Source of the DNA: a phage
NCBI GenBank assembly: GCA_020241125.1
Contig: GCA_020241125.1_4708.1
Direction: 5' to 3' (one strand)
Length of the DNA stretch: 64,000 nucleotides
Of the stretch, positions 3,618 to 56,254 are shown one piece after another. Made by a program: the position numbers and the translations under genes. Within the stretch, counting starts at the first letter, position 1; each line of letters begins with the position of its first letter. The notes beneath the pieces were generated by a model. It searched no databases. It was not told the origin of the DNA and worked only from the letters and a program-made list of their open reading frames with translations.

Positions 3618-5204
3618 TTATTTTTTTCCTCTTAAATTTACTACGTGTTCATTTAATCGAACAACTAATTGCACAAGCTGCTGACGGATATCTGCTGGAC
3701 AAAGCATCAATCCTTTACGGTCAGCTGGGACTTTCTCAAGGATTTCCGGGCCTGCTGCTGAAACATCCCAGTCCCATTCACAAAACGCATCGGCCACCAT
3801 GTTAATACCGACAACCGGTAAAGTTGTACGTTCATCTTCATACATGGCGTGTGGATACAATTTATTGACAGTAATGATCTCCTGTGGTTTTAATTGGTGG
3901 ATAATCTGATAAACATCGTCGCGTTTGACCTGGATACCTACGGTCAGCGCGGCCAGTTGAGGAAAACCCCAATGGTCTAACAAACAAGCTGCGATCGCTA
4001 ACGCTTTTGCCTGATGCACGGCTTCAATCGGTGCCAGACTTCTCGCCGGAAGATGGCTATCAAGCAACCATTGCGCCAGTGCTCGGCATCCGCGGTTAAT
4101 TGGTTTTAACTCAACGGTGTCATCGTGTTTAGCGTACGTGTATCCGTCGTAACGTTTTGCGATACGCGCATACATGTCTTCAACTTTACCGTAAGGTGCC
4201 GTTTCGTCGACGTCGTGCAACACACGTTCCATCTGGGTAAGATACGCAATGTCGAGAATGAGTACACGTGGTGAACGTTTATCTTTCACCATCAACGCAT
4301 CAATCACGCCTTGACTGTCTTCATCTTGCGCATTCCCTCGCGGCGTTTTCTCGCGAATCGGTCCGCTGAAACGTCGTTCCGTACAAAGGTTATTCACATA
4401 GCTGAAGATCAGTGTTACTAGATGCGTACAACTCACTAACACCCCATCTTTAACGACAGGCTGTACAGCTTGGTCCAAGTCGCGTACGGCGAGACGGCGG
4501 ACGATGGCTTGTGAACGCAACCAGCCGGGCACTTTCTCCGTCGACATGTAATCCACGGTCATCGACAGCGTGATCTTTTTATCACCCGTCTGTGCGCGGA
4601 TATAGTCTTCCAGTCGGTCGTAAGCGGCGATATCATGAATGCGTGTTTTATACATCAACGACATAGCCACTTCTTCTTTACGAACCGTTCCGTACGTTTT
4701 CCCTGCGTCAATCAGAAACTCTGCCCAAATCGGCACCATCAGACGGACGTAGATCGCTAACGCCGTTAACTCAACGTAATCATTTCGTAAATAGGTTTTC
4801 TCAGGTATGTCATCCTCACCTAATGTTGTTTTCATGTCCGGTGGTAATTTTACCCAACCTGGGGTATTACACAATGCCAGAATCTCTTCGTACACAACCG
4901 GTTTGTAAATTTCACCAACAGCGCGACTCAACTCCTCCATTTGTTGTTGTGGAGCAATGTAGTTATCCATCGCTTCACGTGCTTTAACGAACCCTTCGAA
5001 GATGTCGTCAATTCGACGTGGGTTCTTTTGTTCTATCCAGGCGAGATACTTGTTAATCTCCCGCATCTGATTGCTAGCCATATCCCCATCAATCTTGATG
5101 TAACCCTGACCTGAAAATTCCACAGTACGTCCATCACGGTGTTTGATGAGATAGTGATCCAGCTTTTCTTTTCCTTGCGTCGTAATGACGGGCACTATGT
5201 GCAT
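3618..5204 (-). CDS. hypothetical protein
   Basis: Track ORF runs to 5339 with a GTG start and an Arg-rich N-terminal extension that overlaps a promoter-like motif; probable true start is internal Met 46 (MHIVPVITTQ...) with GAGG upstream. Start coordinate is approximate. Confidence 0.55.
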   Translation of the reverse strand: MHIVPVITTQGKEKLDHYLIKHRDGRTVEFSGQGYIKIDGDMASNQMREINKYLAWIEQKNPRRIDDIFEGFVKAREAMDNYIAPQQQMEELSRAVGEIYKPVVYEEILALCNTPGWVKLPPDMKTTLGEDDIPEKTYLRNDYVELTALAIYVRLMVPIWAEFLIDAGKTYGTVRKEEVAMSLMYKTRIHDIAAYDRLEDYIRAQTGDKKITLSMTVDYMSTEKVPGWLRSQAIVRRLAVRDLDQAVQPVVKDGVLVSCTHLVTLIFSYVNNLCTERRFSGPIREKTPRGNAQDEDSQGVIDALMVKDKRSPRVLILDIAYLTQMERVLHDVDETAPYGKVEDMYARIAKRYDGYTYAKHDDTVELKPINRGCRALAQWLLDSHLPARSLAPIEAVHQAKALAIAACLLDHWGFPQLAALTVGIQVKRDDVYQIIHQLKPQEIITVNKLYPHAMYEDERTTLPVVGINMVADAFCEWDWDVSAAGPEILEKVPADRKGLMLCPADIRQQLVQLVVRLNEHVVNLRGKK

Positions 5205-5254: not shown

Positions 5255-5295
5255 CACAAAGGTAATATAAGCGTGAATAATTTTGGATTCCGGCT
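5255..5295 (-). promoter_or_regulatory. early-promoter-like motif, copy A
   Basis: Plus-strand AGGTAATATAAGCGTGAATAATTTTGG; minus-strand reads TATATTACC after an A/T-rich block. Confidence 0.4.
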
Positions 5296-10535: not shown

Positions 10536-10572
10536 TCACTTAAGTAATATAGCCGTGAAAAATGTTGGATTA
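10536..10572 (-). promoter_or_regulatory. early-promoter-like motif, copy B
   Basis: Plus-strand TAAGTAATATAGCCGTGAAAAATGTTGG; minus-strand TATATTAC core about 95 nt upstream of the 10450 start. Confidence 0.45.
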
Positions 10573-12346: not shown

Positions 12347-12696
12347 CACATATCTTCAGTATGAATCGCTACTTCATACCCGCAGCATTACCTGCAGCTC
12401 CTGGTGTTACCAGGACGGAGAGATCATCTCATCACCCACGAAGGGTGTTCCGCGCTACCCTCAGCGAATTCGAGGGACATGATCGTTGAACCTTCCACCG
12501 ATAATCGGTGGCTAGGCTGCTGATTAAACATTGTACGTTGGGGTGGCATCCTGGTTCAGGACTGTCGTTGAAGCCTCCCAACATCCACTCACTTATTTCC
12601 GCCTTATCGGCTCCCATAAGGGCAGAGTGGCTTTAGCCCGTCTCAGCAATTCACGGAATTCAAGCTCTTCCTTTCAGAAGGCAGGGCCTCATCTGA
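12347..12696 (-). other. putative group I self-splicing intron (no ORF) in beta-prime gene
   Basis: About 350 nt between GYNA (exon 1) and DFDGD (exon 2); read-through hits a stop. Exon 1 ends in U, insert ends in G. Contains GGUUCAACGAUCAUG with complementary AGAUGAUC downstream and several compact hairpins including a UUCG tetraloop. Confidence 0.55.
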
Positions 12697-13947
12697 AGCA
12701 TTGTATCCCTTAAGGATCATCACGCTTAACCCGATGGTATTATCCTGCGGATCGCGTTTAACCTTGGTGATTTCAAGACATTGGTTACTGCTTCGGTCAA
12801 GTGATGGGTTTCGAACAAAACCGCACACAATCCCATCGAACGGTGTATCAGCAATAAGCTCATCGTGCAGCTCACTCATCATCGGATGATAATTACGGAC
12901 ATGTTCCGCAACGAACGCACGTGCTGCTCTCGGTGAATAACCACGATGGAATAACTTGGATTGGATATGTTCTTTATTGGTTAAAGTAAATGGTGCGTAT
13001 GGGAAATGCAGATGATAATAACGATGGTTCGCTGTTATCGAACTGATTACAGTACGCGTGGTGAATGGATGTAATGTACCTAATATGTTTTTACGTGTGA
13101 TACCTTTCTTCTTACCGATGAACTCATCGAAAATCGCCGCATGGTATTGCAGTAGCTTCAATTGCACTTTCGCCATCCAGTTTTCTTTCTTTCTGGCGCT
13201 CAAAGGTGTTGTTGGGTGATAGATACTATTCAACGTACCGATAGCATCGATCGCACCTTCCATTTTGCTATCCGCATAACGACCGGTTGGCGTATTCTCG
13301 ATAACGAACATCATGGCCGCAGGAAAGCTGATATACTGACTGAAGAACTTATCACGATGGATACGGATGAATTCTCGTAGCGTATCAACTTTCTCCGTGT
13401 TCTTCGGTCCGCGTAACGTCGGTCCTTTATACAAGATCTCCATGATGCGATCGAAGTTCTGTATAAAACTATTTACACCGCGACGTATCCCGAATACATC
13501 GAATTGCTGCTCCAGATAGTTCTTGAGTTCGATGGGTCGTTTTACATTTGGACGGTAACTGGCATCAATGAGCCACGTCATCGTTTCAAAGCTTTTGATA
13601 TTCAACTCGCTTGCCAGCACGAGATGGACCAACGGGTTAATGAACGCATCAATTCCTTCAGGAACACGCGCCCAAACCGTCGAACGAATCTCTTGTTCTG
13701 CTGGATAGGTTACAACCGTTTTACAGTTCGGACACACCGTGCCGAGCAGCTCACCACGATTGTAGAAACCACAACCACATTGTGGCGTGATATCCAACGT
13801 ATCGCTGGAGTAAACACGGGTGATAAAACTGTTTAATTTCTTCTTCTCTTCGACGACTTTTGTATCGTAATCATTCAACAAAATCGGCGTGAAAGGAAGT
13901 TCTGCGAGCTGTCTATCGAAACTCACGATATCGAGCATGATGGCCAT
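12697..13947 (-). CDS. non-virion-type RNA polymerase beta-prime-like subunit, exon 1
   Basis: Zn-finger CGCGFYNRGELLGTVCPNC; RKNILG...TRTVISS (beta-prime RQNLLGKR..SGRSVI); GFVRNPSLDRSS (NRAPTLHR); ends GYNA. Track ORF 12643-13947 includes intron read-through. Confidence 0.65.
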
Positions 13948-15935: not shown

Positions 15936-16000
15936 TTGGGATTCCTCTTTTCTTAAACTTTATTAAATGACGTCATTGAATCAGCTTCTACTCGCTCATT

Positions 16001-16045
16001 CACCTAGGTAATATAACCCTGAAATTTTTTTCAATATTGGTGTAA
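16001..16045 (-). promoter_or_regulatory. early-promoter-like motif, copy C
   Basis: Plus-strand CACCTAGGTAATATAACCCTGAAATTTTTTTCAATATTGG; minus-strand TATATTACC about 70 nt upstream of the 15935 start. Confidence 0.5.
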
Positions 16046-16189
16046 CCACATTGAACGATATAAACCCCTAGGCGAACGCTGCCGAGAAGCAACATTCTTT
16101 CTACATATAATCAGGATATGTCTGTAAACTTTTACTTCTCTTATTGAGAGTAATGTCATATCCGTTTACCATCTTCTTACGGAGTTCGT

Positions 16190-17284
16190 ATGTTTCGTGT
16201 TTTAAATAACCTCCCGCGAACATCATCGGGTGTGCAACCCGTCCCTCAGAAAGACTATCTAATACGCGAAGTTCAAAGAAACCTACAGACAATCCAGAAC
16301 CACTATCAAGGTTTTACCTTCGCGGTTCAGAGCGATCACATCCTTGCGTTGCTGCTCGCACAGCTCCCTATGAGATACGACATCTCAGTACAAACTTACT
16401 ACGACATGATTCTCGATCTTACTCCAGAATTGGGTAATCGTGTTAAGTTGACAACATCAAGATACGCGGGTAAGTTATTCGACGGTGCTTTCTATCCGGG
16501 ATTGCACGAAGCTATTATCGCAACCGGTGAAAGTCGTCTTATTTCACGTGACGTTCTTGACAACTGGCGTAATTGGTCACCGGTTAGAATCGTGACGCAC
16601 CCATACGCAAATCTTCGTTACATTCCTCTTCACCGAAAGCCGGTTGAAGAAGGACGAGGTTTTGCGGTCATTATGGTTGATGTACCTTTATTAGCGCTAC
16701 AGTATCGAATGTGGTCTTTGGTCATGGGTCATAACGTCGACGGCAAATGGGTGGTTAAAGAACCGGTTACAAGCTTCCTTGCGAGTTTTCCGTTGGTTAA
16801 CGCATTATACTCACACAACGATGTTGTTATACGCAATCGTTGTTTGTGGGTATCTCCGGCTAAGAATCCACTCAAATCACCAATTTACGTTAACGACCTT
16901 GATAACGTATTCAGTCAAGTCGTTCTGTCCGTACAGCATCATTTATTACGAAGAAGACGAAGCTACACCGACATGCTTAAACAGATACCGAGTTTATACG
17001 GGGATCAGTACCAAGCAACCCGAATGGGTTACACCGTCGATCTTCGGCAAACGCGATGGGCAAGGGATCTGGGTTGTCTGTCATTATGGCAACAACTCGT
17101 CACGTTGCAAAACGTATCTGAAAGCGTCGGGTTCAGCAGTCAAATCGATAATGACCTGTACCGTGCTGCCGACCGGAGTCTAAAAGAAGGTAACTGGGAG
17201 TCCTCTCCGTTACCTGGCGATTTAAGACGTGAAGTTATCGCACAGGTTGCCGACCTCTTAAAAATTCTTCCCGCTGGTGCATAA
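16190..17284 (+). CDS. hypothetical protein
   Basis: 364 aa ORF; ACGGAG RBS; followed by hairpin 17305-17334. Confidence 0.55.
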   Translation: MFRVLNNLPRTSSGVQPVPQKDYLIREVQRNLQTIQNHYQGFTFAVQSDHILALLLAQLPMRYDISVQTYYDMILDLTPELGNRVKLTTSRYAGKLFDGAFYPGLHEAIIATGESRLISRDVLDNWRNWSPVRIVTHPYANLRYIPLHRKPVEEGRGFAVIMVDVPLLALQYRMWSLVMGHNVDGKWVVKEPVTSFLASFPLVNALYSHNDVVIRNRCLWVSPAKNPLKSPIYVNDLDNVFSQVVLSVQHHLLRRRRSYTDMLKQIPSLYGDQYQATRMGYTVDLRQTRWARDLGCLSLWQQLVTLQNVSESVGFSSQIDNDLYRAADRSLKEGNWESSPLPGDLRREVIAQVADLLKILPAGA

Positions 17285-17334: not shown

Positions 17335-17350
17335 GGGGTGGTGGGTTATG

Positions 17351-23610: not shown

Positions 23611-23623
23611 TACACGGCATAAA
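23611..23623 (-). promoter_or_regulatory. TATGCCG element downstream of terminator
   Basis: Minus-strand TTTTATGCCGTG about 20 nt upstream of the 23601 ATG. Confidence 0.3.
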
Positions 23624-23645
23624 AGCCTGCCCCGAAGGACAGGCT
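23624..23645 (-). terminator. intrinsic terminator with UUCG tetraloop
   Basis: Minus-strand AGCCUGUCC-UUCG-GGGCAGGCU (9 bp incl. one G-U) followed by UUUUAUG. Confidence 0.55.
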
Positions 23646-23654
23646 CGATAGAAC

Positions 23655-24873: not shown

Positions 24874-24937
24874 GTGAACTCCTAACTTAATATGTATTTA
24901 ACGTACAATGAATCTTTCTTTGCTAAAGGGGTGACCC

Positions 24938-25780
24938 ATGGGTGCTATTGACTACAGTGTAGATCGTATCTGTCGTACAATACCGGCAGATATCCTACAG
25001 TATTGCTATATCGATCGTTACGACTGGCGTAATCGCTATCCTCGTTCCGTAGAAGACATCATTACCGATTGGGTAATCCGTAAACGGGTTATCGGCGACA
25101 TCGATATCTACGGGGGACTACAAACCGTTATTCCCCTTGATGATGCAGGTGTCACAATCGAAGAAGTCACCATTAACTGTTATGTTTTCCACATTCCGTT
25201 GGAAGCCACACAGGGACGTTATATCACGTCCGCATTATCCATTATTTCAGGGAGCGTGAACAACTACGGAATAAACTATAACGGGCAATGGGGCGCTTTC
25301 AACCAAACCCAATTTCAACGTCAGCTTTGTGGGTGGAACCCCGCAAGCAACACGTTACAGCAAGGGATGAACGCGTTCGGTCCCATGAACGTTCTTAGTA
25401 CAGCCAACGTTGATATCATCGCCCCTAACACCATCATGGTGAACAACGTCACGCCTGTACAATTTCCCCTGAGCCTACGCTGTTTCCTTGCCCACGATCC
25501 GGAACTTACCAACCTCAGCATGGAGGTTTGGAACGACTTCTACAAACTCTGTTTATACGCCACGCAAAGTGACATCTACAACAGAACCGTTATCCGTCTC
25601 GATAGAGGTGTTACAGCACAAGGACAAGAAGTCGGTGCATTCAAGGAATACATCGATCGCTTTGCTGATGCTGAAAACACATATCAGGAATTCCTGAACG
25701 AAACGTGGGCTGGCGTTGCTGCCTGGAACGATCCACAAACTAAACGTCGCGCCATTCGACTACAAACCGGTTACTTCTGA
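24938..25780 (+). CDS. hypothetical protein
   Basis: 280 aa ORF; AAGGGG RBS; followed by terminator 25794-25818. Confidence 0.55.
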   Translation: MGAIDYSVDRICRTIPADILQYCYIDRYDWRNRYPRSVEDIITDWVIRKRVIGDIDIYGGLQTVIPLDDAGVTIEEVTINCYVFHIPLEATQGRYITSALSIISGSVNNYGINYNGQWGAFNQTQFQRQLCGWNPASNTLQQGMNAFGPMNVLSTANVDIIAPNTIMVNNVTPVQFPLSLRCFLAHDPELTNLSMEVWNDFYKLCLYATQSDIYNRTVIRLDRGVTAQGQEVGAFKEYIDRFADAENTYQEFLNETWAGVAAWNDPQTKRRAIRLQTGYF

Positions 25781-28843: not shown

Positions 28844-29098
28844 GATAGAAATCCTTAGTATGTTTGATATGTTGTTTAATTAACATATTAAGTTTAAAAG
28901 AGGTTATGTTTTACGTATTGTTAATAACGTATTCTTATCTCTATTAAGTTATGTTCTATCTAAAGATAGTAAACAGATATAATGCTCCCCACCTCCCCAT
29001 TCTCCCAAGTAATACTGGCCTACCGGCCCTCTCCTTTTTAAGGGAGAGAGTAAGCATTCAGTATTGCTCAAATGAATAAGCAAAACAGTATAAACTTA

Positions 29099-29122
29099 CC
29101 GTCTCGAGATAACTCGAGACGG
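29099..29122 (-). terminator. stem-loop terminator
   Basis: Perfect 10 bp stem CCGTCTCGAG / CTCGAGACGG with 4 nt loop, about 30 nt after the stop of 29152-29505. Confidence 0.45.
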
Positions 29123-29151
29123 CGTAGTAGTATCTGTTTATCTCTTTTATG

Positions 29152-30089: not shown

Positions 30090-30637
30090 CTTGTAATCCT
30101 TAATTTACCTGAATGAATTATCGTTGATGGGTCCACGACGCGACCGTATTTCGCGTTACGTAATACACGATGCCCAAAGAAGTCAGCGGTTTCCAAAACA
30201 ACCGTGTAACAACCCAGCTGATGTTGATGTCCCCAAAACCGTTCAATGGGAATCCAGCAGGGCGACATGCCTTTGTGTCGCCAATCCGTAACACAGCCGA
30301 ATTCAGCAAACTGTTCAGTAAACCACTCGTCAATGTCGGTATCCGTAAAGAGAAACACGTGGTTTTTAACCAGATAAGCGAACCCAGGATAAAAAAGCTG
30401 AGGGTCATCTGGGTCACGGAGATAAACACGAAGTTTGTCTAGCGTACCCTCGACAACGATTGTATCGGGTAATCCTGGCGGCGTGAACCGAAGTTGGAAG
30501 TTATCCTCGTTTGCCGAGGCGTTAACCAAATACCCCAGTTGAAGGGGTCGATGCAATTCGAAAAGGTTAAACGTTAATGCATATTCGATATACTCTAATC
30601 CTATATTCATGTCTGACCTATGTGGTATGGACGGCAT
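30086..30637 (-). CDS. hypothetical protein
   Basis: 183 aa track ORF; start overlaps upstream stop. Confidence 0.5.
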   Translation of the reverse strand: MPSIPHRSDMNIGLEYIEYALTFNLFELHRPLQLGYLVNASANEDNFQLRFTPPGLPDTIVVEGTLDKLRVYLRDPDDPQLFYPGFAYLVKNHVFLFTDTDIDEWFTEQFAEFGCVTDWRHKGMSPCWIPIERFWGHQHQLGCYTVVLETADFFGHRVLRNAKYGRVVDPSTIIHSGKLRITR

Positions 30638-30742
30638 TGCATTGCCTTCCGCGAGTGTAATCAGGAAGGTAATGTAGGTTTATTTTAATCTCCATTTCGC
30701 GATGATATGACAGTCTTTATTACGTTTACCATCTGAGGGAGC

Positions 30743-31987
30743 ATGCTCATGTCTTCTATTTTACAGGTGTTTAATGCGCATGCGGAAGGCATTGACATCG
30801 ACGAGTATTTTGTTAATCAGGTTATCCGTTACGCGACACGCTTCCGTACGCAAGACCAAGAACACATGCGTTTTTTCGGTGGGGTTCTGTTAGGTGTACA
30901 GAAAATCCGATTCACAACAAGACATAACGATACATGGTTTTCCGACGTCTTGATGATGGATGAAGAAAGCTTACGGCGCGATTTGAGTAAACTACCCTTC
31001 TACAATACGCAGACCAACCGTGTTGCCTCAAACGCCTTTAACCTAAGTTGCTGTTGGTTGCTTTATGCGATCTTCCACAGCAAACAAATCAAAAAAGAAA
31101 AGGTTCGTGAAGCCGGGATGCTTGCAGCAATGCAAGTCCTCCATTATAAATTCATTTGCGGTCTGGTAGCACGACGTTATCCTTATAACGCCGATCCGGC
31201 TATCGCCATTAAGGCGTACGATGAGTTAACCCTCAAATCAGGCATCAAGCGCATGAATAGCTGGAATGAGTACATCGACGAACGCTGTAACGCCATCATT
31301 GCGCGCAATAGCACGCATCTCAGTCGCTGGTCAACCCTGGAACCAGATAGTGTCGCCGAACGTTTTGTGCGTGATGTGAATACCGGAATCCGTAAGGTTA
31401 TCAACCGTATCACCGATACGTACTATGCGATGTATGAAGAGGGTAAGAAGATAGGCACGTCCTCTCAAACTGTAGAATTAGACGACGGCCTCGCTGTTCG
31501 CGATATCAAACGCAACGAAACCACTTATCGTCAATATCTGTTCGAAATCGCTTATGACCGAACAAGTTTCGTTAAACGTGAACTCATGGTCGTCATCCTC
31601 GACGTGCATCATACTACCAATCTTTTATCCCTTGAGCGAGCGTTAAGCTATATCAGCGCTAACGTAGAACGACCGACAAGAGACGGAAAACAGGTCTCTC
31701 AGATGTTGCGGCTTGTAATGGAGCATGCTATCGAGTATATCATCTTGAATAAGGTCGATATGCGCGATCTTACGTTCTTATTCTACATGCGTAACGTGTA
31801 CACGTCCAACCGTACCAGCAACCCGAAACTGTTAGAACTGCGTAAACTTGGCTCTGAAGTCATTAAGAAAGCAACCAACGCGAGAAACGACGCTGAAGCT
31901 GCAGCGACACGTACCGGTGTCTTTCTGTATATCCTGCTTCGTGTGTTTAGCCGTAACTATTACGTTCGACGTGCGATGTCACGTTAA
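30743..31987 (+). CDS. hypothetical protein
   Basis: 414 aa ORF; GAGGGA upstream (start may be the second ATG at 30749). Confidence 0.55.
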   Translation: MLMSSILQVFNAHAEGIDIDEYFVNQVIRYATRFRTQDQEHMRFFGGVLLGVQKIRFTTRHNDTWFSDVLMMDEESLRRDLSKLPFYNTQTNRVASNAFNLSCCWLLYAIFHSKQIKKEKVREAGMLAAMQVLHYKFICGLVARRYPYNADPAIAIKAYDELTLKSGIKRMNSWNEYIDERCNAIIARNSTHLSRWSTLEPDSVAERFVRDVNTGIRKVINRITDTYYAMYEEGKKIGTSSQTVELDDGLAVRDIKRNETTYRQYLFEIAYDRTSFVKRELMVVILDVHHTTNLLSLERALSYISANVERPTRDGKQVSQMLRLVMEHAIEYIILNKVDMRDLTFLFYMRNVYTSNRTSNPKLLELRKLGSEVIKKATNARNDAEAAATRTGVFLYILLRVFSRNYYVRRAMSR

Positions 31988-32139
31988 CAATGTAACGGTA
32001 AAACTTTACTGACGTTGGTTATTATTTGAAGCATAGGGCTTCACCCAGGAGTACCATCCCTTTAAGTCGTTTGTCCTCTCCTGGTTAACTGTCGTTCTCT
32101 CACAGTGCTCGACAGACCAAAAATGCTCAGGCCTCATAG

Positions 32140-32168
32140 CCTCCTCTGGGAATGGAACCCAGAGGAGG
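32140..32168. terminator. bidirectional stem-loop terminator between convergent genes
   Basis: Perfect 11 bp stem CCTCCTCTGGG / CCCAGAGGAGG with 7 nt loop. Confidence 0.55.
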
Positions 32169-32180
32169 ACTATGTTTGCC

Positions 32181-36596: not shown

Positions 36597-39187
36597 TCAC
36601 CTTTGATTGTGTAAAACTTCGTGAAGTCCACGCGATCTTTCAAGAACTCACGACTGACGCGTTCTAAGAACCGCAGTTGTTTAACCGTAACTTCAAGCGG
36701 CGTCCAACTGTCGTGTGGATGAATAGAGACCATCCGCCAATCGTAATTACGTAACGCAGGATCGTAGTCATAGAACCATTTATACGGCTCCATGAAATCC
36801 ATCAGTTTAACGTCCTGCATATCAGGATCGGGATCGATAACACCATTGATAAGATCGTACGTTACCGCCATCAACGTTGGGCTGATAAGCTGGTATTTGT
36901 TTTCAATCGTTACCGGCGTATCGTACTTCACACGAGGGAAATACAAGGACATATAGTCTTCAACGCGTTTATCGGTTTCAAGACTTTTGTCGCGTAGATA
37001 ATACGTGTCTGTGTTCACGAGACCACGGATAGGGGCAATAACATGGTAAATCGCATAAGGCACCCCATCGTTGACTTTGATGTCGGCAGGGTATTGCGTG
37101 TCCTCTGCGGTAACCACTTCGCTACGATCGTAAATACGTCCACCAACCACAATACGAACAACATGGTCGTCACGAACATTAAACACGTCGTCGTAAGAAA
37201 GCTGATTATGCATCGTCCAACCGGTATCGTAAACGGTTTCACCGGTTAAGTCCGTACGTGGAAAACCAGTACATCTCACGGTAACCGTGTGCGTGTTCCC
37301 TTCACTGAAATACCGTTTCGCGTTGATCATGATCGTTGGCCATTTTACGATATAATCGATATCGCGTACCAAGCTGTAGCTTTTGGTTGCTCGCTCGTCA
37401 CCTAACCATACTTCGATTTGACCAGGTTCGAAAGGCAGCGGATATTCAACATCAATACCCGTCGTAACATCCAACCATACGGTGTGGTTACGATGTTGTA
37501 TTGTGGTCTTATACGCTAAGAAGTAGGTGTCGAACAATACTAAACCGGTTTGCTTTCTTCCATCCAACGACCATTTTATTACCCCGTTCTCTTCCGTTAC
37601 CACAGAAGCATCGTCGGTAACATCCTTCCATGTGTTCGCGACAGGTTGTCCGTTACGAAGATTTACGCTATAACAGCGGTAACTCGCCCATTCACGGATT
37701 GGGACGTCGGCAACACCCATCACGTAATCAAGCGTTCTCCCACCAACACCCGATCGACCCTCAACATAGGACGTGGTTTCATATTGCGGATAAAAATGTC
37801 GGCCTGCCGGATGTTGCGTGATACCCAATAATAGACCGTCACTGTCGTACTCAAAGAACGTCGCATTTGCACGTAAACCCCATGGTACTTCAGCGGTAGG
37901 GGTACCCATATCGTCAGTAACGCGTTGTGGACTATCTGCAACCAGTTTTGCCATCGCGTTATACCCGTAAGCGGAGGTCACCATGTCGATCGTGATATTG
38001 CTTTCCTTATTACGCATGATGCGTGTATAATCACTGGCTTCAAGCGTGCGTGCAAAGAACTCGGGTATATTAGCGTTCTGTTCTAACATCGCACCGACGA
38101 TGACGTCGTCTGGAAGTTTATACAGTTCGTGGATGCGGTTATGTTCGAAGGTTAACTGCGTTTTCAAACCGCTATCACGGACAACCACTTCCAGGGTTAA
38201 ATCACGAAGCGATTCTGCTCCATCAACCCGTTCAACGAAGTAGCTGACATAATCAACAGGAATCCCGTAATCACGATGCGTGAGCATGCGGATACTATTT
38301 TCCTGGTTGGTATGGTAATAACGTCCTTTTCCGTTAGGCCCTTTCACGTAGATATCAACGTCATCACGATACCGGATTTTAGTATCCGCTTCATCTTTCG
38401 GCGGATGAATAAGATACTTCACTTTTTTGTCCAGATCGCTGTTGTACGTTTTAAGATCTTCTACACGGAAGCTGTACCGATGAACAACGGTACCGTCATA
38501 GACGACCTGAATGCTATCACCGATCTTAAAACTTGTCGGCGGAATGTCTTCAACCGCTTCACCATTGATACTGCAGTGCGTCCAGCCGATACCGGTTTCC
38601 TGAATCTTTTTACGCCAGGCGTATAGCTGACGCTGCCACTGTAGAACCTGTGTCGAGCTGGTTACAATCCCCCCAAGGACATGCACTTCACGCCCCGTCG
38701 GTTTCGTGTATGACGGATAGCCTTCTGCGAAGTCGGCGTTGAGATAGGTGCGCCAGTAATAATCACCAACGCCAAGGTCAGCGATATTCGGTTGGTCGAG
38801 CACACAGACCAGCATCGTTTCGTTTTCCAGATTACCCGTCCACGTTAATGTCAACGGGAATTCTTTACCGTCCTCGGTATAGATATTGTAATACGATCCC
38901 TTCACCTCACAGAACTTGCTGAGTTCTCGCCACCACAACCGACCCGCCCCGACATTAAAATCCTCCCCCATATGTCGTCCAATAACAAACACATGGAACG
39001 TATTGGTATCATCAGGAAGATTGAATGTACGATGCCAAGCCGTAAAGTTTTTTACTGCGCCGGTCTTTCCGGTAATACGACGCATCTTGATACGATGCTG
39101 GTTGTCCATTAATGGACGGCAGTTCACATTCAGCGCAGCATGATTTATCAAGTATTGCGCTGTAGGATTAGAAGCGTTCAACACCAC
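36593..39187 (-). CDS. hypothetical protein, possibly virion-associated
   Basis: 864 aa track ORF; start overlaps upstream stop. Confidence 0.55.
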   Translation of the reverse strand: MVLNASNPTAQYLINHAALNVNCRPLMDNQHRIKMRRITGKTGAVKNFTAWHRTFNLPDDTNTFHVFVIGRHMGEDFNVGAGRLWWRELSKFCEVKGSYYNIYTEDGKEFPLTLTWTGNLENETMLVCVLDQPNIADLGVGDYYWRTYLNADFAEGYPSYTKPTGREVHVLGGIVTSSTQVLQWQRQLYAWRKKIQETGIGWTHCSINGEAVEDIPPTSFKIGDSIQVVYDGTVVHRYSFRVEDLKTYNSDLDKKVKYLIHPPKDEADTKIRYRDDVDIYVKGPNGKGRYYHTNQENSIRMLTHRDYGIPVDYVSYFVERVDGAESLRDLTLEVVVRDSGLKTQLTFEHNRIHELYKLPDDVIVGAMLEQNANIPEFFARTLEASDYTRIMRNKESNITIDMVTSAYGYNAMAKLVADSPQRVTDDMGTPTAEVPWGLRANATFFEYDSDGLLLGITQHPAGRHFYPQYETTSYVEGRSGVGGRTLDYVMGVADVPIREWASYRCYSVNLRNGQPVANTWKDVTDDASVVTEENGVIKWSLDGRKQTGLVLFDTYFLAYKTTIQHRNHTVWLDVTTGIDVEYPLPFEPGQIEVWLGDERATKSYSLVRDIDYIVKWPTIMINAKRYFSEGNTHTVTVRCTGFPRTDLTGETVYDTGWTMHNQLSYDDVFNVRDDHVVRIVVGGRIYDRSEVVTAEDTQYPADIKVNDGVPYAIYHVIAPIRGLVNTDTYYLRDKSLETDKRVEDYMSLYFPRVKYDTPVTIENKYQLISPTLMAVTYDLINGVIDPDPDMQDVKLMDFMEPYKWFYDYDPALRNYDWRMVSIHPHDSWTPLEVTVKQLRFLERVSREFLKDRVDFTKFYTIKGE

Positions 39188-40115
39188 GGCATGCCTCCAG
39201 GAGGTATTTCATGTTGGCTTGGAAATCATTGACGTCACGCGCCATACGACGCTGATCCGCCATGAGACGAGCCAACACGGTATCACGGTAACCACGATCG
39301 TGGTCAGCAGCAGAGCATAAAAGAATAAATGTTGGTGGATGCTCTAAAGCAATCCCAGCAACTTCTTTACTATAACCCCCAACCCAGCTGTAAGCGGTGA
39401 TTTCAAACAACAACGCTTGGGTTAACGTGTTCAAACGGGGACTAATATTACTTTCTTTTAATGCTGTTACGAAAGCTGCCATGTTAGGGATATAACCCAG
39501 GTTTTCGGTTACGATACCGATGCTCGCAAAATCGTAACGAAGCGTTGTCTGGATGGTGCGCACCATAGTTAGTCTTTCATTATTTGTAAGGCTATCTTTA
39601 AACAGGCAAAGATAATACCATGCTGTTATGGTGGCAACATCACGACGTTGTTGAAGGTCCAGCCCTAAACGTTGTGTGATTTGTCCGCTAATCCAATCAC
39701 AAAAGACACGCATCGGGATAGGGCCAAGACGTTCAAAAGGACGTGTGCCCAAGGATTCCCATCCTACCTGAAGATACGCACGTGATTGAAGAAAGTTATA
39801 TTCACGTTCGTTAACAACGGTAGTACGCGATCCTGGGCGTGAAGTATCTGTTGGGGTGCGCGCGTAAGCGCGTTGGTCGATAACAACGCGCTGTCCGTCC
39901 ATCACTGTTTTAATGACCAACGGATGACCAAAAGAAGGGATATCGTCCAACGTATTTTTGTTGCCGATGACTTCGAGAACGGGAGTGTTTACGCCACTTT
40001 CTTCACCGGGTGCACTTAACAATCCGCCGACGTAAGCAACTTCGATAGCGGTTCGGATACGGTCAATGCCTTTTAGTTTTGTTCCAACAGTTGTGTCGTA
40101 AGGAGAGATGAACAT
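39168..40115 (-). CDS. hypothetical protein
   Basis: 315 aa ORF; AAAGGAA RBS; TATGCCG element about 22 nt upstream. Confidence 0.55.
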   Translation of the reverse strand: MFISPYDTTVGTKLKGIDRIRTAIEVAYVGGLLSAPGEESGVNTPVLEVIGNKNTLDDIPSFGHPLVIKTVMDGQRVVIDQRAYARTPTDTSRPGSRTTVVNEREYNFLQSRAYLQVGWESLGTRPFERLGPIPMRVFCDWISGQITQRLGLDLQQRRDVATITAWYYLCLFKDSLTNNERLTMVRTIQTTLRYDFASIGIVTENLGYIPNMAAFVTALKESNISPRLNTLTQALLFEITAYSWVGGYSKEVAGIALEHPPTFILLCSAADHDRGYRDTVLARLMADQRRMARDVNDFQANMKYLLEACRGVERF

Positions 40116-40125
40116 ATGTAATTCC

Positions 40126-40142
40126 TTTATTACGGCATATAA
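40126..40142 (-). promoter_or_regulatory. TATGCCG element
   Basis: Minus-strand TTATATGCCGTAATAAAGG just upstream of the 40115 ATG. Confidence 0.3.
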
Positions 40143-40190
40143 GAAAACGGGTTAAGCACACAGATTTACGCATAATTGTAATATTTTACG

Positions 40191-40203
40191 TTATGCCTAT
40201 GAC
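40191..40203 (+). promoter_or_regulatory. TATG-type promoter-like element upstream of tail-sheath candidate
   Basis: Plus-strand TTATGCCTATGAC about 60 nt upstream of the 40259 ATG; second TATG (AATTATGTCATAC) about 35 nt upstream. Confidence 0.3.
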
Positions 40204-40258
40204 ATTGTGTCACGTGTGCAATTATGTCATACAATTTCCTTAAATTAAGGAGAGTTCC

Positions 40259-42331
40259 ATGAGGCTTAAGAATAGCACGCCTCGCGCGATTTTTACGGGC
40301 TTTAAAGAGGGTCTTACCACGGATCCGGTTACAGCCCCAGAGATCACGCCCATTCACCTCCCGTATGTTTTCATTCAGGGTGGTCGTGGTAAAGAGGACA
40401 CCTTGCTGTTAACAGGGGACGCCCTGTCTACAGTCTACGGTGAAGATATGCTGAACTACCGCAGTAAGTACGCTTCTCCAGCAACACTGATTGCTCGCCA
40501 GGCGGCTTCTACAGGTAGCGCGATCTTCACAAAACGTTTGGTTGCGCCGGATGCAACGGCAGCACGCATCCGTATCGGTGTTGAAGTGGTCGCCGATAAA
40601 CTGGTCGTTTACCAGCGTAACGCTGACGGGTCCTTTATGAAGGACACCGACGGCAACAAAATCCCTGACGGCGATAAAACCGTTGACGGGGTGAAAATGC
40701 GTTGGATTGTTAACCACGACAAAGATGCCGTAGCGCCTAACGCCTTCGGTAAAGATGAAGTGGTTATCGGACAAATGACCGCAGCTGATGGTACCCAGAG
40801 CAACTACTATCCTATTCTGGATGGAATGGTGAGCTGGCGTGGTGCTGAAGGGGACAACATCGGCTTACGTCTGGAAGCACCGACCGCGCTGAGCAGCAAC
40901 CCTACCCGTACCGATATCATCGAACGTATCGGTGCTTTCCTGTACCGCATTCAGTTCGTGGAACGTAAGTCTTCACGAACTGCGCCGACGGTCATTCGTA
41001 CGATCAGCGGTATGGAACAAGAAACCTTCGCGTTGCAGGAAGGTGTTATCCAGCCTGATGACGAAACCGATCTGTCCTTCGGTAAAGTGGTCGTTGATGC
41101 CTACGAGTATAATGAAACGGGTAACACCCCGATCTTTGCTCCGATGGATCAGATGCATCTTTATCAGAAGAACATCGATGAAGTCGTCAAGAAGCTGTAC
41201 GAATCTGAAAGCAAAGTTAACAAAGATCTGTTAACCGACGTTGAATTCGTCGAAGGTCAGATGAACATCTTCACCGGTGTCGATTACAACGGCATCCCGT
41301 ATCAAACCATCGAAGTTCTCGATGCAGATCAGGGCGGCGTCATCTTTGATGGTACCAGCACCTTCTACGCAATTGATGGTAGCGACGGTGACGTCGACTG
41401 GGATACCTTCGACGCGTTAGCGAAACAGCAGTTCGAATCGTTCGGCAGAATGGGCGAAGATCTGGAAGACATGGCTTTCTATCCGTTCTCCATCGTGTAT
41501 GATATTGGTTACAAAGTCGACACGAAGAAAGCGATGGCAAACGTCTTGTCTCTGCGTCCGGATGTCATGATCATTGCGTCAACCCATACCTGGAAGGGTG
41601 TGGAACTGAATGTCGATGAAGAAAGCTCCATGGGCGCGATGCTGCGTAACTACTATCGTCTGCATCCAGAAAGCGTGCTTTACAATACCCCAGCTTGCCG
41701 TGCTGCGGTATTCATGCAATACGGTGAAAGCATCGAAGCGCCAAGCCTGGGTAAAGTTCCGTTGACGCTGGAAGTTGCTAATAAACTTGCAACTTACATG
41801 GGTGCTTCGGATGGTGTTATCCGCGGTACCCGCATCGATAACAACCCTGGTAACGTTGTCACAACGATGCGTAAAATCAACAAGACGTATCGTAACGCAA
41901 CGGTCCGCGATCGTGATTGGGAAAACGGCTTGAACTATGTTCAGACCTACAACCGTAATTCCAACTTCTTCCCGGCTTGGGGCACGATCTACAATAACGA
42001 CCGTTCGGTATGGCGTTCGTTGATCAACGTGATCATCGGTTGCGATCTGACTCGCGTGTGCTATCGTCTCTGGGCAGAAACCACCGGTACTACAGGAATG
42101 GATGAAACCCTGTTCCTGAAACTGATGGGCGAACGCTTCCTGGAATACACCACGGGCCGTTACAACGACCATGTGACTGTTAAGGGACGTTTCTACCTGG
42201 ATAAAGAAGACGGTTACAACGGCTTCAGCTATCACGGCGATATCAGCCTGATCGGCGATCCAGGCATGACCGTGGGTACGTTTACCATCACCGGGCTGCG
42301 TCGTAACACCGAAGCAGCAGAAGCGGCGTAA
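40259..42331 (+). CDS. major virion structural protein; candidate contractile tail sheath
   Basis: 690 aa; strongest RBS in window (TAAGGAGAG); followed 15 nt later by a 296 aa gene and a bidirectional terminator. Assigned by size and gene order only. Confidence 0.45.
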   Translation: MRLKNSTPRAIFTGFKEGLTTDPVTAPEITPIHLPYVFIQGGRGKEDTLLLTGDALSTVYGEDMLNYRSKYASPATLIARQAASTGSAIFTKRLVAPDATAARIRIGVEVVADKLVVYQRNADGSFMKDTDGNKIPDGDKTVDGVKMRWIVNHDKDAVAPNAFGKDEVVIGQMTAADGTQSNYYPILDGMVSWRGAEGDNIGLRLEAPTALSSNPTRTDIIERIGAFLYRIQFVERKSSRTAPTVIRTISGMEQETFALQEGVIQPDDETDLSFGKVVVDAYEYNETGNTPIFAPMDQMHLYQKNIDEVVKKLYESESKVNKDLLTDVEFVEGQMNIFTGVDYNGIPYQTIEVLDADQGGVIFDGTSTFYAIDGSDGDVDWDTFDALAKQQFESFGRMGEDLEDMAFYPFSIVYDIGYKVDTKKAMANVLSLRPDVMIIASTHTWKGVELNVDEESSMGAMLRNYYRLHPESVLYNTPACRAAVFMQYGESIEAPSLGKVPLTLEVANKLATYMGASDGVIRGTRIDNNPGNVVTTMRKINKTYRNATVRDRDWENGLNYVQTYNRNSNFFPAWGTIYNNDRSVWRSLINVIIGCDLTRVCYRLWAETTGTTGMDETLFLKLMGERFLEYTTGRYNDHVTVKGRFYLDKEDGYNGFSYHGDISLIGDPGMTVGTFTITGLRRNTEAAEAA

Positions 42332-43237: not shown

Positions 43238-43263
43238 CGTAAAAAAAAAAGCATATTAACCTC

Positions 43264-43300
43264 CCTTCCTTCCCCGGCCTTGACGGCTAGGGAAGGAAGG
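43264..43300. terminator. bidirectional intrinsic terminator
   Basis: 11 bp stem CCTTCCTTCCC / GGGAAGGAAGG with inner GCC/GGC; A10 run upstream and TTTATGGTTTATTT downstream. Confidence 0.7.
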
Positions 43301-43312
43301 TTTATGGTTTAT

Positions 43313-44964: not shown

Positions 44965-45010
44965 TCAGTTAGGTAATATAGACCTCAACTTTTTTCCAAT
45001 AATACTGCAA
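44965..45010 (-). promoter_or_regulatory. early-promoter-like motif, copy D
   Basis: Plus-strand GTTAGGTAATATAGACCTCAACTTTTTTCCAATAATACTG; minus-strand TATATTACC about 120 nt upstream of the 44849 start. Confidence 0.45.
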
Positions 45011-54607: not shown

Positions 54608-56254
54608 TTAGGCTCCACGAGGTCCCGTTAAGTTGCGTAATAGGAACGCAACCGTATCGTAACCAATATCGATGTTGAATTTATTTTTACCACTTACCCA
54701 GAAAGCTCGCTTCTTGTGCGAGTTGGTAATTTCGTCAATAGCTTCCATGGAATAAAGAACGTTAACCGAGACCGTATCACCATCAAAGTCCCCACCAAGT
54801 CCGGCGAGGTATGGCGCAGGGACAATAGTCGTTTCTACGAACGAAGCATTAGGTAACCAGTCGGGGTATTCCCATGCGATAAATCGTTCATCCGTTATTG
54901 GTTCCCAGTTACTATCCAGTTCGGTTTTCGGTTTTGCGGCGACGGTTGTACGTGCGTAACAGGTTAACGGGATAACGGATTGCATACCTGATACCGGATA
55001 ACGTGTTACCATCGCAGCCAGGTTATTCCAGTACTTATATCCGGCAATATAGATAAGCTCGGTGTAAGTAATGGGGTGAACATCCGCGCCAGGTTTATTC
55101 AACATCTCCGGGGGTAATTCACTCATGTCACGGAATAACCGAAACGAATCGTTGTTCACATAGACGAGGCAAAGATATCGTCCATTGACCATGATAGGCT
55201 CGTTACGCACGCCAGGATCGCTTAAGGTGTTCAGTAAACGTTCTATTCCGTCCCATGTTGTAAAGTCATCGATGGTGTCTGGATCAAGCGTGACGCGCTC
55301 ACGTTCCATCGTTTCGGTATCAATAAGTTCAACTTCTGTAACATCACGGACAAATATTTCCTGCAAAATACCTGTACGTAACGCATGTTGCGTTACTGGG
55401 AGAGCGGCTTTACTCATCTGGTATAACCCTAACTGAACCGCGGTACAGGAAGGCTGGTTAGGCGACCCTAATACCTCCGTTGTGGGGTTAATTGCCGAAA
55501 TAACGTTACGGGTTGAGTTCCAAACGCGACGTGAACCAAACTTACCTTGGAAGATCCCTTTCTTACCCTGGAACATATCCAACAGTAAAGCGTAGATATC
55601 GTTGAATGTTCTCTGTAAGCTCCAGCGCTGGCCGTCGTAAACGGGATCGGAATAATCTTTTAATCCATCAGGGACGGTGTTAGAAATTGCAAGGAAACGA
55701 CGATACAACTCCGTGATTTCTTGCTCGCTTTCATACCCACCTTCTTTTACTTCTATTTCACGTAAGCCTGCAGGCAATACCAGTAAGTGACGGGTCATCG
55801 CTTTGAACATGTTCTCTTCGACAACTTTAATTCGTAGCTCTCGTTGAGCTGAACCCGTTGAAACGAACTTGATATCCGCGACGTGTTGTGCAAAGAACCC
55901 GTATCCTGTTTGTCCTGTTAATGCATCAGACGCAACGAAGTCGCGTTGTTCGGGATCCCACCGAGCGTACGCCTTCCCCGACATGATATCGCCATAGAGG
56001 TGTTTTAATCGAATGAGACGGTCGTAAATGACAGGATGCAGGATTTCAACCTTGCATTCAATCACCGCAAATCGACGGTCTCGATCTTCACTACCCGCAC
56101 TACCAAAGATGGTGTAAGAATAGAAACCATCATCGTGGAAATTACCGGTGCTTGGGTCACGAATGCTCATGCTCGTGATCTTGGGGAGAAAACGTAACTG
56201 CTGTTTATCGAGGTGTAAAATACTAATATTAAACGGCTCTCTGACTTTAGCCAT
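54608..56254 (-). CDS. virion-type RNA polymerase beta-prime-like subunit, N-terminal fragment
   Basis: Track ORF 54608-56296; likely start at Met 15 with AAGAGGAG. Motifs LLVLPAGLREI (VLPPDLRP), ITELYRRF (DLNDLYRR), GGDFDGDTVSVNVLYSMEA (NADFDGDQMAVH). Confidence 0.7.
   Translation of the reverse strand: MAKVREPFNISILHLDKQQLRFLPKITSMSIRDPSTGNFHDDGFYSYTIFGSAGSEDRDRRFAVIECKVEILHPVIYDRLIRLKHLYGDIMSGKAYARWDPEQRDFVASDALTGQTGYGFFAQHVADIKFVSTGSAQRELRIKVVEENMFKAMTRHLLVLPAGLREIEVKEGGYESEQEITELYRRFLAISNTVPDGLKDYSDPVYDGQRWSLQRTFNDIYALLLDMFQGKKGIFQGKFGSRRVWNSTRNVISAINPTTEVLGSPNQPSCTAVQLGLYQMSKAALPVTQHALRTGILQEIFVRDVTEVELIDTETMERERVTLDPDTIDDFTTWDGIERLLNTLSDPGVRNEPIMVNGRYLCLVYVNNDSFRLFRDMSELPPEMLNKPGADVHPITYTELIYIAGYKYWNNLAAMVTRYPVSGMQSVIPLTCYARTTVAAKPKTELDSNWEPITDERFIAWEYPDWLPNASFVETTIVPAPYLAGLGGDFDGDTVSVNVLYSMEAIDEITNSHKKRAFWVSGKNKFNIDIGYDTVAFLLRNLTGPRGA

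Follow-up and report, generated by a model that had tools for sequence, protein, structure and literature searches.

Late promoters of the phiKZ type are very short signals. The phiKZ late promoter consists of the tetranucleotide T(-3)A(-2)T(-1)G(+1), which overlaps the transcription start site; all four bases are required in vitro with the five-subunit non-virion RNA polymerase, and a 2026 cryo-EM structure places the four non-template bases in a pocket of the β-like subunit gp123 (PMC4666361, PMC12809450), in which Tyr399 encloses T(-1). No flanking consensus accompanies these promoters, and the region from +1 to +51 is needed for their activity. In P119L, the phiKZ reference promoter, which is located between divergent genes, the distance from the initiating G to the gp119 ATG is 47 nt. 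Phage AR9, with a homologous non-virion polymerase, likewise has a very short late promoter; by contrast, its sigma-like subunit reads template-strand uracils in the form 3′-UUGU-(6N)-AU/C-5′. The late promoters of jumbo phages encoding their own RNA polymerases are regarded as unpredictable from sequence (PMC7598289), and in the literature searched, the only such promoters that have been mapped are those of the Pseudomonas phages phiKZ and 201phi2-1. Furthermore, a terminator motif, BCCYCCCCHWWDGGGRRGGBYTTATKYYGT, has been described in phiKZ (PMC10914365).

The DNA analyzed here is a stretch of 64,000 nt from a phage contig (GCA_020241125.1_4708.1), referred to as the window. It is 97.5% identical to Escherichia phage vB_EcoM_Goslar, a nucleus-forming E. 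coli jumbo phage related to phiKZ whose structural genes are expressed late according to RNA-seq, and it corresponds to Goslar 155523-223010 minus two stretches present in Goslar only. A preliminary description of the window proposed short TATG-containing elements, upstream of a tail-sheath candidate and of four further genes, as candidate late promoters, with reference to a TATG-type core of the phiKZ late promoters; such a core is indeed established for phiKZ (PMC4666361, PMC12809450). The sheath assignment also holds, since the plus-strand gene at 40259-42331 matches phrog_3242 (E 1.5e-189) and Goslar gp218, and the gene downstream of the TATGs is thus a late virion gene. Divergently from it, a gp28-like virion gene (Goslar gp219; orthologue of phiKZ gp28) occupies 39168-40115 on the minus strand. 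The gap between the two genes, delimited by the open reading frames and the annotation of Goslar gp219/gp218, spans 40116-40258 (143 nt); as it is flanked by divergent late operons, it must hold promoters for both. The order of a minus-strand gp28-like gene followed by plus-strand genes for sheath and tube is conserved family-wide, and of the 18 other phages retrieved, 17 have the gp28-like and sheath genes annotated as a divergent pair.

The two elements described upstream of the sheath gene, TTATGCCTATGAC at 40191-40203 and AATTATGTCATAC at 40220-40232, are present exactly as reported, and with them three TATGs in the sense of the sheath gene. The first (40192-40195, within TTATGCC) has its G40195 64 nt before the ATG at 40259, the second (40198-40201, within TATGAC) has G40201 58 nt before this ATG, and the third (40223-40226, within TTATGTCATAC) has G40226 33 nt before it. 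Three further TATGs are found on the minus strand at 40136-40139 (within TATGCCGT), 40171-40174, and 40228-40231, i.e., 21, 56, and 113 nt before the ATG of the gp28-like gene. In total, the sheath gap alone holds six TATG/CATA versus 2.6 expected, a number reached in 140 of 5000 shuffles (uncorrected), and with several TATGs per gap the true start cannot be picked out. The arrangement resembles that of the phiKZ late promoters in that a sense-strand TATG stands tens of nucleotides before a late virion gene (47 nt in P119L; 58 and 33 nt here, and 34 nt at the gene at 30743, discussed below) and in that the flanks are not conserved in either. It differs in having two or three TATGs to a gap, as well as a local palindrome, neither of which has been described for P119L.

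Conservation was compared in three Goslar-like genomes. The diverged relative IMGVR_UViG_3300011560 matches the window at 87.7% of third codon positions (12% diverged) and is 96.6% identical to it in intergenic DNA, so that a retained TATG hardly discriminates. A 55-nt block (40196-40250) containing the second and third TATGs is unchanged in this relative, and the first is lost (TTATG to TAATG). Accordingly, the first sheath TATG is probably not functional, as judged from the sequence comparison. G40201, in TATGAC, is the best candidate for the late transcription start, and G40226 is a second candidate, which might instead belong to the 3′ arm of a leader hairpin.

Within a single genome, TATG provides little positional signal. 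The Goslar genome was rebuilt with 247 annotated genes, which yielded 131 oriented upstream gaps, and dinucleotide shuffles served as the null. Sense-strand TATG upstream of genes numbers 91 in Goslar versus 70.5 +/- 7.3 expected (z 2.8), and the antisense form CATA in the same gaps numbers 68 versus 67.5; in the 30 upstream gaps of the window there are 26 TATGs versus 22.4, a count reached by 123 of 500 shuffles. The words with the highest enrichment upstream of Goslar genes are TATGCCGT (8 versus 0.18 expected), TTATGC (17 versus 3.7), and TTTATGC, and these TTATGC-type words sit directly 3′ of GC-rich hairpins. The raw genome-wide excess is therefore attributable to terminator boxes of the phiKZ type (a GC-rich hairpin followed by TTATGCYGT), which account for 26 of the 91 upstream TATGs. 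A cleaner count comes from the gaps between divergent genes, where promoters are required but terminators are not: 27 TATGs versus 24.9 expected, 19 of 38 oriented gaps with a TATG versus 17.2, and 13 versus 10.0 in the zone from -18 to -75. The distance histogram shows a weak excess at 26-45 nt (20 versus 13.4) that falls inside the spread given by the same four letters (T, A, T, G) in other orders. The preliminary description had taken a lack of positional enrichment over shuffled sequence as telling against its proposal, and once the terminator boxes are removed no such enrichment is left, so that by this measure the claim fails; within-genome positional enrichment of TATG is, however, not a defining feature in phiKZ either. 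Its extended form, (A/T)TATG(T/A)C, is likewise not established, because the sequences flanking 52 hairpin-free TATGs are uninformative (at most 0.12 bit per position), and it is at most a weak preference. A motif search in the 131 Goslar upstream regions by k-mers and expectation-maximization recovered terminators and early promoters only, with no late motif, and some virion genes that need their own promoter follow a gap lacking TATG, e.g., Goslar gp204 (position 56500 of the window). In practical terms, single-genome counts of TATG upstream of genes mostly count terminators.

These counts, the uninformative flanks, and the unremarkable distance histogram are all as expected if every TATG listed were a chance tetramer in AT-rich spacer DNA and the real promoters were not recognizable by sequence. 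We regard this explanation as unlikely, mainly owing to the behavior of the orthologous sheath gap across the family. The sample comprised 18 phages from about 13 lineages, which are not mutually independent and include some doubtful annotated starts; Ralstonia phage FLC1-1B was left out because its annotation shows no gene in the 400 nt upstream, and Vibrio phage pVp-JHP1101 because its gp28-like and sheath genes overlap. Sheath-sense TATG occurs 38 times in the 18 gaps versus 11.5 expected, a value reached in none of 1000 shuffles, and 17 of the 18 gaps contain at least one TATG versus 8.7 expected. The excess is maintained with the window excluded (35 versus 10.4) and with the last 16 nt of every gap removed (33 versus 10.7). 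Among 12 lineage representatives, again without the window, TATG numbers 26 versus 8.5 (z 6.5) and ranks first of the 256 tetramers, ahead of the ribosome-binding signals GGAG/CTCC. The signal is specific to strand and gap: the opposite orientation, CATA, is not enriched in the gaps of the 12 representatives, TATG on the other strand in all 18 gaps numbers 16 versus 10.7 expected (56 of 1000 shuffles), and in control regions within the sheath gene TATG stays at the expected level (34 versus 31.7; 39 versus 38.9). Hence, in the comparison of orthologous gaps across the family, sheath-gap TATG is far above chance. The set in which sheath-sense TATG leads the tetramers of this gap comprises phages of Escherichia, Pseudomonas, Erwinia, Salmonella, Serratia, Klebsiella, Ralstonia, Xanthomonas, Stenotrophomonas, and Vibrio. 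Against the chance explanation there also stand the occurrence of TATGAC at one and the same distance before a second late gene in the window and in phiKZ, and the avoidance of TATG elsewhere in the genome, both of which are described below.

Some sequence context is shared beyond the tetramer itself. In phiKZ, 201phi2-1, and PS119XW, the similarity between the sheath gaps begins exactly at a TATG located 64-66 nt before the ATG. The form TATGAC precedes the sheath gene in eight phages, including SEGD1, Machina, Asesino, Derbicus, PhiEaH1, 2050HW, and KpLz-2_45, and TATGA[CT] makes up 14 of the 38 sheath-gap sites; this weak preference for A at +2 and C or T at +3 is a point of difference from the phiKZ late promoters. 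In 2050HW and PhiEaH1, TATGAC is followed by TATGTACATAC, which by eye resembles TTATGTCATAC of the window, although a MAFFT alignment of the three promoter regions did not recover this by-eye alignment. In the sheath gaps of SEGD1, Machina, Asesino, and Derbicus, GACC-N4-GGTC stands directly after the conserved TATG, with a constant stem and a variable loop; in a transcript starting at the G, this element would form a stem-loop at the extreme 5′ end.

Inverted repeats are also present in the window. A repeat search identified TATGACAT / ATGTCATA (40198-40231), two perfectly complementary 8-nt arms separated by 18 nt; this inverted repeat contains the second and third TATGs together with the minus-strand TATG at 40228-40231. 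A second inverted repeat, TCCTTAA / TTAAGGA (40237-40251, plus strand), was found in the same search and forms the second hairpin in the RNA fold; it overlaps the ribosome-binding site of the sheath gene, and a hairpin hiding this site in the leader RNA is possible. The palindrome at 40198-40231 might be the working unit, either as the operator of a dimeric phage regulator or as a leader hairpin controlling the stability or translation of the sheath mRNA, with the TATGs incidental to its arms. The perfection of the repeat and the repeats nested within it, the unchanged block at 40196-40250, the coverage of the ribosome-binding site by the second repeat, the stem with variable loops after TATG in the SEGD1 group, and the need of the phiKZ late promoters for +1 to +51 are all consistent with such a role. 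Nevertheless, RNA folding of 40195-40258 does not reach significance (z -1.85; 14 of 200 shuffles fold as well), the inverted repeat is absent from the gaps of the phiKZ group, and it is TATG and not the palindrome that recurs across genera. We therefore judge it quite improbable that the palindrome is the essential element, and a palindrome would in any case be compatible with a promoter at the same place rather than opposed to it.

The resemblance of some of these elements to terminators also needs to be considered. TTATGCC and the minus-strand TATGCCGT in the sheath gap match the 3′ box of the terminator motif of phiKZ and 201phi2-1 letter for letter (PMC10914365), TATGCCGT and TTATGC are among the most enriched Goslar upstream words, and sense hairpins followed by TAT continue with G in 36 of 51 cases; the copies in the gap might thus be terminator 3′ boxes (a hairpin plus TTATKYYGT) or remnants of them. 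At genuine sites, the box lies 3′ of the hairpin on the transcribed strand only, and on both sides of the hairpin between convergent genes. In the window, a GC-rich hairpin followed by (T)TATGCYGT was found on the minus strand at 23618-23646, 12375, 19570, 44302, and 45878 and on the plus strand at 17347-17350, and bidirectional terminators with one hairpin and a box on each side were found at 32135-32174 and 43252-43306. Positions 40186-40258, by contrast, are devoid of the defining hairpin: the 40 nt upstream fold with only -1.5 kcal/mol at 40195 (plus) and -1.1 kcal/mol at 40136 (minus), as compared with -17 to -30 kcal/mol at real sites. Since the gap moreover lies between divergent genes, where terminators are not expected, the TTATGCC and TATGCCGT copies are not terminators; the plus-strand TTATGCC copy is, in addition, the one lost in IMGVR_UViG_3300011560. 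A terminator origin of these copies is accordingly very improbable, and none of the five sites of the preliminary description is a terminator box, because no hairpin precedes any of them. A special, hairpin-free box in the form of TATGCCGT before the gp28-like gene was considered separately and rejected, as TATGC[CT]GT without a hairpin occurs at chance frequency, with 18 copies in coding DNA.

Promoters of other kinds were also sought in the gap. The phiKZ type of early promoter, which is AT-rich, has the core TATATTAC, and is used by the virion RNA polymerase, is present in the phage of the window as well: the motif tttCACGGCTATATTACyT..GTGA is clear in Goslar at about 13 sites, and TATATTAC cores lie on the minus strand of the window at 5262-5269, 10544-10551, 16008-16015, and 44973-44980. 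The TATG of the sheath gap is a signal separate from these early promoters, and a search for a full early promoter in the sheath gap returned only a 7-of-8 core match, AATATTAC (40178-40185, minus strand), which lacks the CACGG and GTGA flanks. Among the genes preceded by early-promoter motifs are those for the gp68-like polymerase subunit and the nuclear-shell protein (chimallin), and a variant core is located at 30669-30676. A host sigma-70 promoter, GTGTCA-17-TACAAT (40207-40235), might alternatively drive the sheath gene. This is the only 9-of-12 match in the sheath gap, where shuffled sequences give 1.1, i.e., it is at chance level, and phages of the phiKZ type transcribe without the host polymerase, inside a protein-shelled nucleus; host-driven expression of the sheath gene is thus extremely improbable.

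The polymerase that would read TATG is encoded by the Goslar-like phage, as it is by phiKZ. Homologues of all five subunits of the non-virion polymerase were found, two of them in the window and the others in Goslar. The gene for the sigma-like subunit, homologous to phiKZ gp68, lies at 3618-5204 on the minus strand (PDB chain 9rjs_B / 7ogp_B, PHIKZ068, E 5e-28), and that for the N-terminal β′ subunit, homologous to phiKZ gp55, at 12643-13947 on the same strand (PDB chain 7ogp_A, PHIKZ055, E 1.3e-60). In Goslar, gp171 corresponds to PHIKZ071 (gp71-73), gp165 to PHIKZ074, and gp039 to gp123 (blastp E 5e-57), with an overall identity of 28.5% between gp039 and gp123. In comparison with phiKZ, no more than about half of the gp123 pocket is retained in Goslar: of its 14 residues, seven are identical in gp039 (Ser144, Phe151, Lys158, Lys190, His331, Ser334, and Gln466), two are conservatively replaced (His185 to Tyr and Tyr406 to Phe), and five are changed (from Asn186, Ser330, Asn398, Tyr399, and Ser402), including the replacement of Tyr399 by Lys. 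The half-retained pocket is suggestive without being conclusive, and its changed residues count against the promoter reading.

Taken as a whole, the sheath gap (40116-40258) is the control region of two divergent late virion operons, and at least one of its second and third TATGs (TATGAC with G40201, TTATGTC with G40226) probably serves as a late promoter of the phiKZ type, an assignment that we hold with some confidence by analogy with phiKZ. From the sequence, the synteny, the enrichment across the family, the conservation, and the presence of the polymerase, all of which are observed, we infer that transcription would start at the sheath TATGs. On the phiKZ model, the five-subunit non-virion RNA polymerase would open the DNA at the sheath gap, its gp123-like β subunit would bind the non-template T(-3)A(-2)T(-1)G(+1), and the RNA would start at G40201 or G40226, so that the leader would measure 58 or 33 nt. 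Elements of this kind are already known, and the sheath site would be a new example in an E. coli phage. If confirmed, TATG recognition would be a family-wide property, the sites would represent the first late-promoter predictions for Goslar, the E. coli model of the phage nucleus, and engineers would be provided with defined late expression signals.

The remaining sites of the preliminary description, whose TATG strings are all present where described, here measured at 34-70 nt upstream of their genes, differ in their support. At the gene at 30743, TATGAC (30706-30709, plus strand) has its G30709 34 nt before the ATG. This gene is the orthologue of the phiKZ structural head protein gp32, and in phiKZ itself TATGAC precedes the gp32 ATG by the identical 34 nt, which sustains the site as a candidate late promoter. 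The comparison was extended to four extra phages; in two of them the protein is extended at its N-terminus, and in one the gene is arranged in tandem instead of divergently. A TATG lies about 36 nt (2050HW) and 40 nt (Eowyn) before the annotated starts, none is present in Simmy50, and overall four of five lineages have a TATG at 34-40 nt. The upstream gap (30611-30742, 132 nt) shows no difference from IMGVR_UViG_3300011560. By analogy, TATGAC at 30706-30709 is probably the same kind of late-promoter site as the sheath TATGs.

At the gene at 16190, the TATG (16117-16120, plus strand, within GGATATGTC) has its G16120 70 nt upstream, and the phiKZ orthologue gp52 has TATGAT 83 nt before an annotated start that is itself uncertain; because the gap (15936-16189, 254 nt) differs from IMGVR_UViG_3300011560 at a single position, conservation does not discriminate there. 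At the gene at 24938, the TATG (24891-24894, plus strand, within AATATGTAT; G24894 44 nt upstream) is preceded by a base that varies in IMGVR_UViG_3300011560, and no TATG occurs within 200 nt upstream of gp42, the phiKZ orthologue of this gene, which speaks against this site. The minus-strand TATG at 28884-28887, 41 nt before 28843, is kept in IMGVR_UViG_3300011560 with changes in the bases on either side. These three sites and the first sheath TATG cannot be separated from chance. The original proposal of late promoters is thus supported for the second and third sheath TATGs and for the site at 30743. It is not supported for the first sheath TATG, which is lost in the relative, for the site at 24938, or as regards genome-wide enrichment, and the sites at 16190 and 28843 are candidates. 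Intergenic DNA is in general more conserved than silent codon positions, and the near-identity of the gaps at 15936-16189 and 30611-30742 suggests a dense regulatory content. The plus-strand island genes at 16190-17284, 24938-25780, and 30743-31987 have phiKZ orthologues (gp52, gp42, and gp32) that are likewise inverted relative to their neighbors, so that this opposite-strand island arrangement is old and conserved.

TATG is conspicuously avoided within genes. Against a null that permutes the codon order within each gene and thereby preserves codon usage, it is the most depleted tetramer in the coding DNA of the window (195 versus 314, z -8.0) and of Goslar (725 versus 1109, z -14.2), with sense-strand ratios of 0.62-0.65 and rank 1 of 256 in both. 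Virion genes are more strongly depleted (ratio 0.57) than a presumed early block (0.78), and in phiKZ coding DNA TATG ranks fifth. CATA is likewise depleted in Goslar-like coding DNA (0.57-0.63), and in 18 sheath genes it numbers 4 versus 27.1 and 11 versus 28.5 in dinucleotide shuffles. Over the whole window and both strands, 342 TATGs are present versus 501.6 +/- 19.5 expected. The purging of TATG from genes fits a signal that is read by a polymerase and must not arise by accident. A bias at codon junctions may partly underlie the depletion, since TATC is strongly enriched.

Given that hairpin-TTATG units flank the bidirectional terminators and that TATG is the tetramer most purged from genes, TATG might be a dual-use signal of the non-virion polymerase across the nucleus-forming jumbo phages, acting both as the late start and as the box after the terminator hairpin; we consider this idea rather doubtful. 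It could take two forms. In the first, each terminator would double as a promoter, forming a cassette at whose G transcription begins anew. In the second, the pocket beneath the β lobe would recognize TATG not only at promoters but also during elongation, where the tetramer in the open bubble would signal a pause or termination; the pausing that sigma-70 induces at sequences resembling the -10 element provides a parallel.

Several minor features of the window were noted. Scans of the window against Rfam and for tRNAs gave no matches, and two long gaps, 12350-12642 (293 nt) and 28844-29151 (308 nt), contain no called gene and no Rfam match; the former is the place of the intron and HNH insertion of Goslar. 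The two Goslar stretches missing from the window (Goslar 168195-169660 and 211748-213798; window 12689-12698 and 54781-54789) are both annotated as a group I intron with a homing-endonuclease gene (gp186, HNH; gp206), and each adjoins an RNA-polymerase subunit gene. The gene at the second insertion is an uninterrupted open reading frame of 548 amino acids in the window (54608-56254).
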